From: a phage
Strand: one strand, 5' to 3'
Sequence record: PQ478073.1
Length of the DNA stretch: 64,000 bases
Shown here: piece after piece, positions 59,081 to 62,195 of the stretch
Position numbering within the stretch: the first letter of the stretch is position 1
How the letters are laid out: every line of letters begins with the position of its first letter
Position numbers and translations under genes: made by a program
Notes under the pieces: model-generated
The model's input: the letters and a program-made list of their open reading frames with translations, nothing else
What the model was told of the DNA's origin: nothing
The model's database searches: none

Positions 59081-59108
59081 TTGACAAGATAGAATGATGT
59101 GATATAAT
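59081..59108 (+). promoter_or_regulatory. sigma70 promoter P1 (TTGACA N16 TGaTATAAT), -10 flanked by inverted repeat
   Basis: consensus hexamers; tandem with P2. Confidence 0.6.
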
Positions 59109-59173
59109 AAGCATCAGACATAAAGTTTTCAAGCGTCACAAGATGTGAGTTTGAAAAAAAGAAAAAAAAGTGA

Positions 59174-59201
59174 TTGACAAGTTGAAACGATGTGATATAA
59201 T
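59174..59201 (+). promoter_or_regulatory. sigma70 promoter P2 (TTGACA N16 TGaTATAAT), -10 inside 7-bp inverted repeat GATGTGA/TCACATC
   Basis: consensus hexamers. Confidence 0.6.
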
Positions 59202-59300
59202 GTTCACATCAAGACAGCAAAGAGATTTACCTTTTAAACACACGGATGATTCATGAAGTAACAAAGGAACTGATAAGTTAAATTATTTTAACACAGTTCC

Positions 59301-59329
59301 TTTACTTTTGCCCACGGATTGGCTATAAT
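59301..59329 (+). promoter_or_regulatory. sigma70 promoter P3 (TTTACT N17 TATAAT)
   Basis: overlaps 10-bp stem hairpin 59263-59303. Confidence 0.45.
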
Positions 59330-59370
59330 AGAAACTTAAACGATTTTATCCAACAAAAGGAAATATATAC

Positions 59371-60696
59371 ATGACTACTCAAAACGATATCCTGAACGTT
59401 AAACTGACTCCAAAGAAAGCTAAAGAAGCAATGGCACTAGCTGACATGATTCAAGATAGCCTGATGATTTGGGGTAGCCCAGGTATCGGTAAGTCTGCAA
59501 TCGCTCGTCAATACGCTGATGAAAATTACCCACTGCGTAAAGATAACGTAGCTAAAATCGAGTTCATGAAACAACAAATCGAAGCTGACCCTGAAAATGC
59601 TGATCAGCTACGCCGTGAACTGGTTGCATTTGAAGCAAAACTAATCGACCAAGATACTAACTTTATCGATTTCCGTTTGTCTCAAATCGAACCAAGTGAC
59701 CTTCGCGGTATCCCTGTACCAGAGAAGCTTTTCCGTAAAACTGACGGTTCTCTTCTCAAAGAATCTGAGCTTGCTGAAGCAAAAGATTATGTGGCTGAAA
59801 CTGCTGTAGTATGGGCTGCACCTAAAGTACTGAAATTGTCCGAAGATTGGAAAGGTGTTATTCTGTTTGACGAAATTAACTCTGCAATGCCTATTGTTCA
59901 GGCAGCGTCTTATCAGCTAATCCTCGACCGTTGTGTTGGTGAGATGAAGCTACCTAAGACTGCACTGATTCTTGCAGCAGGTAACCGTGAAACTGATGGC
60001 GGTGTAACGTTCTCTCTTGCTACACCACTGCGTGACCGTATGACTCACATTGAGATGATTCCTTATCATCAAGATTGGATTAACGATTATGCGATTGCAA
60101 AACGTTTGAACCCAGCAACTGTTGCGTTCATCAACAACACTGGTTCTAAGTACTTTAACACACTTAGCCCACAAGATCCTTCTCACAGCGGTGGTACTTC
60201 TCCACGTTCATGGGAAGCAGTAGCACGCTACGAAGATCTCAAGAAAAATAAGACAATTGATAAAGAAGTGTTCCGTGCAATGATTGCTGGTCGTGTTGGT
60301 GAAGGTGTTGCGACTGAATACATTGAGTACGTTGAGAACGTTGCTAAACTACCAGATACTATGTCTATTCTGTCTGGTGAAATCAAAGAAATCGACGCAA
60401 CGCTGGATATTTCTGCGAACTACTTTATCACTCTGAACTTGGTTTATAAAATTATCGACCTGTTCAATGAGAAGCAAGAACAACGTCTACCAGTGGAAGA
60501 ATGGGGTAAACTGTGTAACAACTTCATCACCTTCCTAGACCATAACTTCTCTGCAACTCAAGCAGAACTGGCAGTACTGGCAATTCGTACCATCACGCTT
60601 CATAAGGTTGCGATTTCCATTAAAGATGTACCAGCGTTTAAAGATTTCATCGCTAAGTACTCTGAACTTGTACGTAAAGCACGCTCTCTTGGCTAA
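59371..60696 (+). CDS. MoxR-type AAA+ ATPase (CobS-like)
   Basis: Walker A GSPGIGKS, Walker B ILFDEIN, AAGN...LRDR sensor/arginine region; strongly biased codon usage. Confidence 0.75.
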   Translation: MTTQNDILNVKLTPKKAKEAMALADMIQDSLMIWGSPGIGKSAIARQYADENYPLRKDNVAKIEFMKQQIEADPENADQLRRELVAFEAKLIDQDTNFIDFRLSQIEPSDLRGIPVPEKLFRKTDGSLLKESELAEAKDYVAETAVVWAAPKVLKLSEDWKGVILFDEINSAMPIVQAASYQLILDRCVGEMKLPKTALILAAGNRETDGGVTFSLATPLRDRMTHIEMIPYHQDWINDYAIAKRLNPATVAFINNTGSKYFNTLSPQDPSHSGGTSPRSWEAVARYEDLKKNKTIDKEVFRAMIAGRVGEGVATEYIEYVENVAKLPDTMSILSGEIKEIDATLDISANYFITLNLVYKIIDLFNEKQEQRLPVEEWGKLCNNFITFLDHNFSATQAELAVLAIRTITLHKVAISIKDVPAFKDFIAKYSELVRKARSLG

Positions 60697-60716
60697 TTAA
60701 CAAAGAGTTGTTGACA

Positions 60717-60745
60717 AGAAGGATGCCTAATGGTATCCTTCTTTT
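60717..60745 (+). terminator. intrinsic terminator
   Basis: AGAAGGAT/ATCCTTCT stem, T-run. Confidence 0.5.
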
Positions 60746-60770
60746 ATCTTAACTAAACGAGGAAATATAC

Positions 60771-62195
60771 ATGTCAGATAACAAATCTACTTCCAGATTT
60801 AATGAAGTATCTCCGGCACTCCAGAAAGAATGTCAAGAACGTCTGGTTCTGGCTCGTACATCTTTGATGTTAACTGCACCATTCTTTGGTGTACTCGCTT
60901 CACGTTTACGTCCAGTTCCTAATAATACATGGTGTCGTACTCTAGCAGTGGATGGTAAACATCTATTCTACAACGTAGAATTTGTAATGGGTATTCAAGA
61001 CCCATCTAAAAAGAAAGAATATGAAGAAGCTATTCGTGAAAAGCACCCTGAAGTTACAGACGAACAATTAAAAGAAATGACTGAAGGTTTGACTGATGAA
61101 AACCTTGTTGCAGTAATTTGTCATGAAATCCTACACTGTGCTTACGATCACTTCCTTCGTCGTGGTATGCGTGATCCACAACGTTATAACCGTGCAGCGG
61201 ATTATGCCATTAACCAAATCATCGTTCGTGAGAAAATTGGAAAAATCCAAAGTTCATGGTTGTATGATAAAAAATATGAAGGTATGACCGCAGAAGAGAT
61301 TTACATTCTTCTTGAAGAAGAAGAAGAAAAGCAAGATGGTGAAGGACAAGGACAACCACAAAGCGGTGGTGGTGAAGGTGAAGGTAAAAATCGTGGAACT
61401 TTTGGTGATATTAAAGATGGTAAGGGTAAACCAAAAGGTACTACAATTGACCAACATGACGTTCCACAAGAAGGTCAAGAAGGTGGTTCTAGTGAACAAC
61501 AAAAACGCGATTATATGGATGATTTCAAAACAGCAATGATGAATGCTGCACGTGCAGGTGGTACACCAGCAGAAATCGCTCGTATGATTAACAACTTCAA
61601 AGAACCAAAGATTGACTGGCGTTCAAAACTTCAACGTACTCTTCGTAGTTGGTTGAAGTCTGATGCAACTTATCAAAATCCAAATCGCCGTTCATGGGGT
61701 GCTGGTTTTGGTTCTAATGGTTCATTCTATGGTAATCCAATTTACCCAGGGATGAAACCAGATGATGATATTGATATTGCGATTGCACTAGATGCTTCTG
61801 GGTCTATTTCTGAAGATATGCTTCGTGATTTCATTAGTGAAGTTCTTGGCATCACTAAACAATTCAAACAGTTTAAGATTCGTATCATGACTTTTGATAC
61901 TGAAGTTTATACTGTAAAGGATTACAAAACTGGCGAAGAACGTAAGATTCTGGAATATCCAGTAAAAGGTGGTGGTGGTACTGACTTTGAAGCAGTATGG
62001 GTTCATATGAAGAACGACAACTACAAGCCTAAACAGCTTGTAATGTTTACTGATGGTGAACCGTGGCAGTCATGGGGTGATCCAAACTACTGTAAAACAC
62101 TGTTCGTGATTCACAGTAACCCAAATAAAGTTGCACCATTTGGTGAGACTGTACACTACGAATATGAAGCTGATAAAAAGCGTCAACGTAGTTAA
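60771..62195 (+). CDS. VWA-domain protein with N-terminal HExxH metallopeptidase-like domain (MoxR partner)
   Basis: HEILH motif; MIDAS-like DIAIALDASGSIS. Confidence 0.7.
   Translation: MSDNKSTSRFNEVSPALQKECQERLVLARTSLMLTAPFFGVLASRLRPVPNNTWCRTLAVDGKHLFYNVEFVMGIQDPSKKKEYEEAIREKHPEVTDEQLKEMTEGLTDENLVAVICHEILHCAYDHFLRRGMRDPQRYNRAADYAINQIIVREKIGKIQSSWLYDKKYEGMTAEEIYILLEEEEEKQDGEGQGQPQSGGGEGEGKNRGTFGDIKDGKGKPKGTTIDQHDVPQEGQEGGSSEQQKRDYMDDFKTAMMNAARAGGTPAEIARMINNFKEPKIDWRSKLQRTLRSWLKSDATYQNPNRRSWGAGFGSNGSFYGNPIYPGMKPDDDIDIAIALDASGSISEDMLRDFISEVLGITKQFKQFKIRIMTFDTEVYTVKDYKTGEERKILEYPVKGGGGTDFEAVWVHMKNDNYKPKQLVMFTDGEPWQSWGDPNYCKTLFVIHSNPNKVAPFGETVHYEYEADKKRQRS

Follow-up and report, generated by a model that had tools for sequence, protein, structure and literature searches.

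A two-gene unit was analysed within a 64,000-nucleotide stretch of phage DNA (sequence record PQ478073.1; hereafter, the window). It comprises a gene predicted to encode a MoxR-class AAA+ ATPase (59371–60696; 441 residues), followed by a gene for a partner protein (60771–62195; 474 residues) that combines an N-terminal HExxH domain with a VWA domain bearing a metal-ion-dependent adhesion site (MIDAS). Both genes were found as open reading frames (ORFs) and, like all other features of the unit located below, lie on the plus strand. They correspond to gp563 (annotated 'ATPase') and gp564 (annotated 'Zn-dependent hydrolase') of phage 121Q and are N4 gp24/gp25-like; the ATPase is 99.5% identical to 121Q gp563 and was assigned to phrog_1297. 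The 3.7-kb region was 98.5% identical over its full length to 121Q, PBECO4, phAPEC6 and some 20 further jumbo phages of Asteriusvirus, and by this comparison the source is a 121Q/PBECO4-type jumbo coliphage (Asteriusvirus).

A preliminary description had placed the pair behind three stacked promoters with operator-like palindromes. The layout predicted from the related loci consists instead of a promoter, a terminator-like leader hairpin (T1), the ATPase gene, an intercistronic hairpin (T2), the VWA partner gene and a closing terminator (T3), and it appears to be conserved. The gene order is common to four genera, namely Asteriusvirus, Alcyoneusvirus (Muenster, RaK2 and K64-1), Eneladusvirus (pEa_SNUABM_44) and Mimasvirus (GAP32), and is also found in unclassified relatives.

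The ATPase and its VWA partner

The Walker A motif of gp563 (GSPGIGKS, residues 35–42) contains G35, G38, K41 and S42, all invariant across 44 aligned sequences, and in Walker B residue D167 was nearly invariant and E168 invariant. The candidate sensor/arginine residues N205, R223 and R279 were likewise invariant in this alignment. Against Pfam, the protein itself scored below threshold for AAA_3 (16.7 bits versus a cut-off of 27) and gave no AAA_5 match, whereas among the 44 aligned family members, query included, AAA_3 was matched by 13, AAA_5 by 15 and bpMoxR by four. The top Foldseek matches of its AlphaFold model (predicted local distance difference test score, pLDDT, 85) were NorQ (9qh4 and 9qh6; E 1.6e-7) and CbbQ (6l1q), with a target-normalised template-modelling score of ~0.6 and a probability of 1.00, followed by Midasin, dynein and McrB. 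In the model, Walker A is followed by a helical hairpin, and the C-terminal region is large and helical. Strands 114–123 and 140–149 fall between the DLRGIP helix and Walker B, while N205 is followed by a loop at 206–217; these were considered as possible counterparts of the helix-2 insert and the pre-sensor-1 beta-hairpin insert of MoxR proteins. Searches of the PDB by sequence returned only Walker-A-level matches (Midasin and p97) and marginal integrin I-domain matches for the ATPase and its partner. From its motifs, closest folds, family profiles and VWA neighbour, gp563 is classed as a MoxR-class AAA+ ATPase, with ATP hydrolysis predicted. The MoxR assignment of the preliminary description is thus retained on the NorQ/CbbQ folds and on the 13–15 of 44 family members hitting AAA_3 or AAA_5, and not on the protein's own profile score.

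Among 64 ORFs, the ATPase gene ranked first in G+C content (0.425), in G+C content at third codon positions (0.353) and in the CTG share of leucine codons (0.39). Its effective number of codons, 35.4, was not the lowest of the set, and the strong codon bias ascribed to it earlier stands for the former three measures only. Mass spectrometry of purified phAPEC6 particles detected the orthologous ATPase, gp265c (49.5 kDa), with six peptides and 19% coverage, whereas the VWA partner is not listed among the particle proteins, which do include thymidylate synthase and PhoH (PMC7247149). High expression of the ATPase is plausible in view of the tandem A-tract promoters, the host-like codons and this detection; the control by operators that had been suggested alongside it was not retained, as described below.

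The partner matched DUF2201_N (PF13203) with 122.4 bits against a cut-off of 23.2, and DUF2201 strongly as well. Across 42 sequences, H118, E119 and H122 of the HExxH motif were invariant and H127 was nearly so, and the MIDAS (D341, S343, S345, T404 and D428) was complete and invariant, in agreement with the combination of motifs described at the outset. The C-terminal domain has a Rossmann-like VWA fold, with the NorD VWA domain among its structural matches; a finger insertion was not identified in the VWA domain of the partner model. No solved structural relative of the N-terminal domain was found among the matches listed, and the equivalent domain of a bacterial homologue gave a marginal Peptidase_M48 match (21.9 bits versus a cut-off of 20.3). 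From the HExxH motif, the Pfam name and this marginal match, the domain is considered a putative zincin metallopeptidase. Proteins of the gp564 type carry the name 'HNH endonuclease' in PHROG 1314 and several GenBank records, and in 121Q the label is 'T4-gp25-like'. Both labels were judged annotation artefacts, with no HNH domain found by Pfam, and are likely to reflect a propagated mis-annotation in which N4 gp25 was confused with T4 gp25.

Of 80 viral loci, 74 have a VWA homologue downstream of the ATPase homologue; among the six with no match, several stop just past the ATPase match. Homologues of the ATPase were found in 813 phage records, covering N4-like and rV5-like phages, phage G and cyanophages, and in hundreds of environmental viral contigs, and the pair is also present in some bacterial genomes. 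Two such bacterial pairs (AAA_5 plus DUF2201_N/DUF2201) lie on a Chromatiaceae chromosome (locus L122, 3932–7823; labels of this form denote loci compared here) and in Brucella pecoris (L118, 2961–10421). One of the two adjoins an M48-TPR peptidase and cytochromes, and the other adjoins a DNA ligase and a beta-clamp gene, probably within a prophage-like element.

Promoters, leader and terminators

Two promoters of predicted early sigma-70 type, P1 (59081–59108; TTGACA-16-TGATATAAT) and P2 (59174–59201), were called by the promoter scan as perfect TTGACA-16-TATAAT sites (12/12) with a TG-extended −10. Perfect sites numbered four in the 64 kb against 0.23 expected, which places the two near-identical consensus promoters reported earlier beyond chance. 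Both lie inside a 39-nt direct repeat with a spacing of 93 bp, and each is preceded by an A-rich, UP-like tract: AAAAATAAATG (59070–59080), which abuts the −35 of P1 within the direct repeat and has 86% A+T in the upstream 22 nt, and GAAAAAAAGAAAAAAAAGTGA (59153–59173) ahead of P2, with 82% A+T in the upstream 22 nt. P1 was kept in Turkey3, JNE01 and A4 and was missing from the other genera, and it is a duplication limited to Asteriusvirus. An orthologue of P2 was found in every relative examined, with a −35 of TTGACA in Asteriusvirus and Alcyoneusvirus, of the TGGGACA class in Munch and L095, and of the TGAAAC class ('promoter 1' class of phage CBB) in GAP32, pEa44 and fHe-Yen9-04.

An early-promoter family was defined by scanning 150 kb of 121Q outside the window. 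The early regions of 121Q contain dozens of promoters of one family, composed of an A-tract, TTGACA, a 16–17-nt spacer, TATAAT, 5–6 nt and ACATCAA(G). With their A-tract, TTGACA, 16-nt spacer, TGTGATATAAT and ACATCAAG start, P1 and P2 belong to this family of the phage's own, from which they deviate at the spacer end, where GATGTGA gives the optimal extended −10 TGTGnTATAAT. Between 74 and 150 kb of 121Q, more than 20 early promoters follow the template A-tract, TTGACA, N9, (C)AGTACTG, TATAAT, N5 and ACATCAAG, examples being those at 142462, 145492, 149132 and 149491; several lead directly into a GC-rich 5' stem-loop (GGGGAGAA-UAG-UUCUCCCC) that lacks a U-tract. The 'TGAAACG' motif of CBB was considered as an element of P2 and rejected: in CBB it forms the −35, 17 nt from the −10, and in P2 it falls within the spacer. 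The GAP32 and fHe-Yen9-04 orthologues have the motif in register.

Within the P2 transcript, T1 (59256–59310) consists of a terminator-like hairpin and the U-rich tract TTTACTTTTG; its 10-bp core (59263–59272/59294–59303) is extended by AAGUAA/UUACUU, and its fold z-score was −3.2. The arrangement of a promoter, then 20–105 nt, then a hairpin with a U-rich tract was found in every relative with an ATPase identity of ~55% or more, and by eye a similar but looser layout was recognised in L093 and L094 (~50% identity). Variants of the stem include GGAACTG/CAGTTCC, GGCACTG/CAGTGCC, AGCACTG/CAGTGCT, GACACTG/CAGTGTC and GGCACAGA/TCTGTGCC. In an alignment of 14 phages, four pairs of the helix showed compensatory double changes; none of 500 shuffles matched the observed covariation, which collapsed when the register was slid. 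The orthologues in GAP32 and pEa44 were called terminator-like by the terminator scan, and T1 of the window, with its 21-nt loop, lies beyond the limit of that scan. On this evidence, T1 is regarded as a conserved terminator-like leader element, with compensatory changes in at least six phage lineages.

T1 is accompanied by two GGA elements. The first GGA motif of the leader, ACACGGATGA (59240–59249), has weak flanking stems, and a GGA occurs 10–25 nt upstream of the hairpin in 14 of 14 leaders. The second is a short stem-loop (GCCCA-CGGA-TTGGC, 59310–59323) with a stem of 4–5 bp, whose loop GGA was invariant in 13 of 13 aligned leaders and whose stem covaries (CCAA/TTGG, CAAA/TTTG, CTCAA/TTGAG and GCTT/AAGC), two of four pairs being altered on both sides. 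The Shine–Dalgarno sequence of the ATPase leader is AAGGAAA. A CsrA/RsmA site presents GGA in a short hairpin loop, and targets have at least two sites, one of them at the Shine–Dalgarno sequence. The GGA-loop stem-loop, considered as a candidate for such a site, is accompanied in this leader by an upstream GGA and the AAGGAAA Shine–Dalgarno; GGA-loop hairpins, however, were not enriched in the window (85 versus 78±8 expected). At ~163 nt, the P2 leader is unusual: early mRNAs of this phage typically carry a short leader that has a 5' stem-loop and lacks a U-tract.

Two relatives have a rearranged leader, namely phage EJP2 (L010, 412–732) and Vibrio phage 2.275.O (L094, 450–703), in which a first promoter with the terminator hairpin precedes another promoter that is directed into the ATPase gene. 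In EJP2, the GGA stem-loop is found in an ATPase leader without T1, with the terminator module upstream of that other promoter; in Vibrio phage 2.275.O, the promoter and the first ~30 nt of the transcript are tandemly duplicated. A search for an antiterminator, in the form of a conserved alternative partner for the 5' arm of T1, found none. A leader peptide was rejected, as the short ORFs (MIHEVTKELIS and MK) are not kept between genera. In published RNA-seq of PA5oct, the four non-coding RNAs map elsewhere in the PA5oct genome.

T2 (60716–60743), an intrinsic-terminator-like hairpin of 12 bp with a U-tract, is located between the ATPase stop codon and the partner start codon. A counterpart in the same place, with unrelated stems, was present in 11 of 12 relatives, including at ~50% protein identity, and is annotated as a terminator in Muenster. 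The two-gene unit is closed by T3 (62208–62229; 9-bp stem and U-tract), which has orthologues in Muenster, GAP32 and pEa44. T2 and T3 were called by the scan in the window, as were T1, T2 and T3 in both GAP32 and pEa44.

The inverted repeats at the −10, which the preliminary description had taken for operators, do exist, with 7 bp at P2 (GATGTGA/TCACATC) and only 5 bp at P1. Their arms are accounted for by promoter elements, since the 5' arm is the extended −10 (TGTGnTATAAT) and the 3' arm (TCACATC) is the start motif ACATCAAG; in P2, the start-site motif of the family, ACATCAAGAC (59206–59215), holds most of the supposed 3' arm (59204–59210). Among the 65 TTGACW promoter-like sites of the genome, a repeat bracketing the −10 reached at least 5 bp in 19 and at least 7 bp in five, and many 121Q early promoters carry ACATCAA(G) 5–6 nt past the −10, often without any repeat. 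The repeat is disrupted in JNE01 and missing from Muenster, Munch, Hallingskeid, pEa44 and GAP32.

P3 (59301–59329; TTTACT-17-TATAAT), the third promoter claimed, is a doubtful match of 10/12 without the TG, A-tract or start motif of the early promoters, and its −35 hexamer coincides with the U-tract of the T1 hairpin. Sites of at least 10/12 numbered 13 in 6.5 kb, and the promoter scan total, 32, was only mildly in excess of the 21±5 in shuffles. The −10 of P3 is kept only in Asteriusvirus and Hallingskeid, and no equivalent was found in pEa44, GAP32, L091 or L096. P3 thus appears to be a chance-level match, and neither it nor the palindromes are supported as functional parts of the operon. 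Of the earlier picture, two promoters and the 10-bp-stem hairpin remain, the latter as the conserved terminator-like element T1 rather than as part of a promoter.

Other features and neighbouring genes were recorded as follows. Between P1 and P2, the small palindrome TCACAAGATGTGA (59136–59148) is kept in the four Asteriusvirus lineages compared and has no U-tract after it. A perfect TTGACA-17-TATAAT at 58594–58622 lies inside a structural-gene coding sequence (58278–58673) and lacks an A-tract, the TG and the ACATCAAG start. At 29483–29540 and 40491–40557, TTGACA promoter-like sites are directly followed by terminator-like hairpins, such that the transcript would start within the stem; these are the usual junctions at which a terminator overlaps a promoter, unlike T1, which a transcript from P2 reaches after 55 nt. 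A 16-nt ribosome-binding context common to the two genes was rejected, as the copies differ by one TA unit and do not form a repeated motif in the window.

Upstream of the pair, 121Q has the structural genes gp554–561 and the small gene gp562, and downstream of gp564 it has three small genes and then thymidylate synthase; a ribonucleotide reductase is also encoded by 121Q. The promoter of the next unit (62243–62270) is of the GGGACA-16-TGATATAAT class, as at 7330, 32152 and 43251. This phage-specific intergenic class (TGGGACA-N16-TGATATAAT) has −10 elements at 7330, 32152, 43251 and 62262, with GGGACA in the loop of a 10-bp palindrome in two cases (32134–32156 and 62244–62269), and looks like the Asteriusvirus counterpart of the 'TGAAACG' class of CBB/GAP32. 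Two genes downstream, a 197-residue ORF (63213–63806) matched the PHROG family 'DprA-like DNA recombination-mediator protein' (E 1.3e-26). Together with the thymidylate synthase of 121Q, this ORF indicates that the genes past T3, behind a promoter of their own, include DNA-metabolism functions.

Proposed working of the operon and alternative readings

The unit is interpreted as a two-gene early operon that would be transcribed from P1 and P2 by the host polymerase, attenuated at T1 and adjusted in its product ratio by T2, and whose proteins would carry out NorQD-like remodelling combined with cleavage; we assign this reading a probability of roughly 60%. Early in infection, P1 and P2 would be strong starting points for host RNA polymerase, T1 would attenuate the flow into the ATPase gene, and T2 would lower the adaptor relative to the ATPase, as for a hexamer with a single VWA partner. 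CbbQ6O1 is a hexamer with one VWA partner, and an ATPase-over-adaptor ratio would be expected from this and from the NorQD complex. The stronger codon bias of the ATPase gene and the detection of the ATPase, but not its partner, in phAPEC6 particles agree with such an excess. By analogy with NorQD/CbbQO, the VWA domain would dock on the ATPase ring and the MIDAS would grip an acidic residue of the target protein; ATP hydrolysis would then remodel the target, which the HExxH domain would probably cleave. The template for this mechanism is the 'finger-in-pore' and twisting model of NorQD (PMC13036017).

As regards timing, the deposited LUZ7 record has the homologue of the ATPase on the plus strand, at 14 kb. 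The structural and lysis cassettes of LUZ7 occupy one strand and its early and middle genes the other (PMC9163698), and the homologue appears to be on the early/middle strand, taking the orientations of the record and the paper as coinciding. A function before assembly is favoured by the early-promoter family, the host-like codons, the unrelated morphologies of the phages concerned and this apparent strand position, and most of the weight left over by the assembly and cofactor-insertase readings below is placed on a function that starts before assembly, with a target that may be of host or phage origin.

Several points weigh against this interpretation. Start sites, T1 and T2 efficiencies and timing are, in this phage group, deduced from the nucleotide sequence alone, and the orthologous promoter has a TGAAAC or TGGGACA −35 in other genera, so that its class may not be 'early'. 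The U-tract of T1 is interrupted (UUUACUUUUG) and its loop in the window phage is 21 nt long; T1 could instead act in RNA stability or processing, or simply terminate the late operon upstream. The 6:1 stoichiometry is drawn by analogy only, and peptidase activity of the gp564 N-terminal domain is a prediction for which no solved structure was matched among the matches listed. The operon also comes directly after the structural genes gp554–561 and a head-completion gene, and the presence of the ATPase in purified phAPEC6 particles fits an assembly role equally well.

These last two points belong to the best of the alternatives, that the pair is a virion-assembly chaperone and maturation protease, which would fold or assemble a tail, whisker or head component while the HExxH domain would process structural proteins. 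Iyer et al. 2021 propose virion assembly for the pair of group 2.2 jumbo phages, citing a MoxR-vWA pair needed for tail development in Acidianus two-tailed virus (PMC7824862). We regard this as possible, if clearly less probable than the early operon. The promoters are of the early family, and the late TATAAATA motif was not found nearby. Homologues occur in N4-like podoviruses, rV5-like myoviruses, cyanophages and bacteria, in which virions differ or are absent, and the LUZ7 homologue is apparently on the early/middle strand. The phAPEC6 list is not specific to structural proteins, as it includes thymidylate synthase and PhoH, and in 121Q gp563 and gp564 are not annotated as structural, whereas the upstream gp557–561 are. 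The T4 late-promoter octamer TATAAATA itself occurs twice in the 64 kb against 10.3±3.0 expected, once at 16601, 35 nt upstream of an 898-residue ORF; its depletion suggests a functional signal that is avoided elsewhere.

A second alternative concerns the leader, from which P1 and P2 would mainly produce a discrete small RNA of ~100 nt ending at T1, with the ATPase mRNA coming from P3 or from rare read-through. The order of promoter, short stretch and hairpin with U-tract, kept in every relative examined to ~55% ATPase identity and seen by eye at ~50% in L093 and L094, would suit such an RNA, as would EJP2 and the Vibrio phage, which have the promoter–hairpin module apart from a second, ATPase-directed promoter. 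We nevertheless consider it unlikely. Except for the GGA, the stretch between start and hairpin is unconserved in sequence and in length (~20 to 105 nt); the conserved GGA stem-loop is 3' of T1, so that its expression requires read-through; and P3 is missing outside close relatives. Rfam searches of 58900–59450 at E≤10 returned only noise (such as miRNA and snoRNA models that fell well short of the gathering score), with no family match. A covariance model of the leader element (R1) found only the ATPase leader in 214 kb of genome, without a second copy, its other matches being ordinary terminators.

Thirdly, the pair could be a metal-cofactor insertase or enzyme activase of the NorQD, CbbQO, CoxDE or CobST type, maturing or reactivating a metalloenzyme of phage or host, for instance one of nucleotide metabolism. 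The closest solved folds, NorQ and CbbQ, and the NorD VWA match point this way, as do the DprA-like protein and thymidylate synthase downstream and the ribonucleotide reductase of 121Q. Against it, the HExxH motif is invariant here and, to our knowledge, characterised activases have no HExxH domain; Pfam gave no CobS, CobT or CbbQ_C match, and no third gene that might be a client is conserved next to the pair in the loci compared. This leaves an insertase quite improbable.

Of the alternatives, the least credible is that the −10 repeats are repressor operators that shut the promoters off, with P3 as a third regulated promoter. In its favour, Turkey3 and A4 retain 6 bp of the 7-bp repeat of P2, the two P1 arms of A4 are altered (ACGTGA..TCACG) yet still complementary, and TGTGA-N8-TCACA presumably resembles CRP half-sites. 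Against it, promoter elements explain both arms, repeats of this size are found at other promoter-like sites, the repeat is not conserved outside the genus and P3 is at chance level.

The early-operon reading can also be extended to an early ATP-driven, MIDAS-targeted protease, and not an assembly chaperone, that would remodel and cut a host or early phage protein during takeover. Its leader, with the terminator hairpin between GGA motifs, one of them in a covarying stem-loop, and a GGA in the Shine–Dalgarno sequence, would be under riboregulation by a GGA-binding protein such as host CsrA. We hold this fuller version to be speculative and improbable as a whole; if true, leader control of the CsrA type would tie synthesis of the machine to the physiology of the host. 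For the operon as such, the early-promoter placement, the proposed attenuation and the proposed ATPase/adaptor ratio offer a concrete and cheap experimental entry and cast doubt on virion assembly, the sole published functional guess. Among the conserved gene pairs of large lytic phages, the N4 gp24/gp25-type pair is one of the more widespread.

Comparison with known systems

The gene pair is already known: it is a homologue of N4 gp24/gp25, it is annotated in GenBank, and Iyer et al. 2021 reported it. Their paper gives a MoxR-vWA pair with an N-terminal metallopeptidase domain for group 2.2 jumbo phages (PMC7824862); these are the same genes with the same domain architecture, and at the protein level there is no difference. 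The passages of the paper considered here do not mention the early-promoter family, the leader hairpin or the intercistronic terminator (PMC7824862). N4 gp24/gp25 and the homologues in N4-like and rV5-like phages, phage G and cyanophages form the same pair in the same order, and the Muenster annotation cites YP_950502 and YP_950503. The N4 gp24-type homologues differ in being only 25–30% identical, and the jumbo-phage ATPase is longer, with 441 residues versus ~330–390 in most of the distant homologues aligned.

The pair had been described as CobS/CobT-like, present in large phages and of unknown role. The last of these points stands, and the likeness holds at the superfamily level; it does not extend to the families themselves, and the pair was not new, as it is described in PMC7824862. 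No CobS or CobT Pfam family matched at E≤0.01, and Mg_chelatase reached 16.4 bits against a cut-off of 20.3; neither protein matched an NCBIfam family or an anti-phage defence system in PADLOC. The chelatase motors CobS/CobT and BchI/BchD follow the same superfamily logic, with an AAA+ motor and a VWA/MIDAS subunit, and gp563/gp564 differ from them in having no third substrate-binding subunit and in the presence of HExxH.

NorQ/NorD and CbbQ/CbbO are alike in the ATPase fold, the MIDAS-bearing VWA domain and the adjacency of the genes (PMC13036017 and PMC9976466). Identity is only 12–15%, and the NorQD and CbbQO clients are nitric oxide reductase and Rubisco. The HExxH domain is a feature of gp564; we know of no such domain in NorD or CbbO. 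By analogy, the working principle is likely to be common to these systems and to gp563/gp564, with the adaptor docking on the ring and the MIDAS binding the target.

With respect to regulation, the unit resembles the attenuators and intercistronic terminators of bacterial and phage operons in its position-conserved hairpins with U-tracts, whose stem sequences drift, and differs from them in that searches of this leader found neither an alternative antiterminator structure nor a leader peptide nor any known riboswitch. No description of the leader hairpin, the GGA stem-loop or the conserved intercistronic terminator was found in the literature examined. Overall, the locus contains an ordinary, known gene pair within a modestly interesting, putatively attenuated early operon, from which the operators and the third promoter dissolve on comparison; its leader hairpin, GGA stem-loop and intercistronic terminator are familiar kinds of element that add modest detail to what is recorded for the pair.

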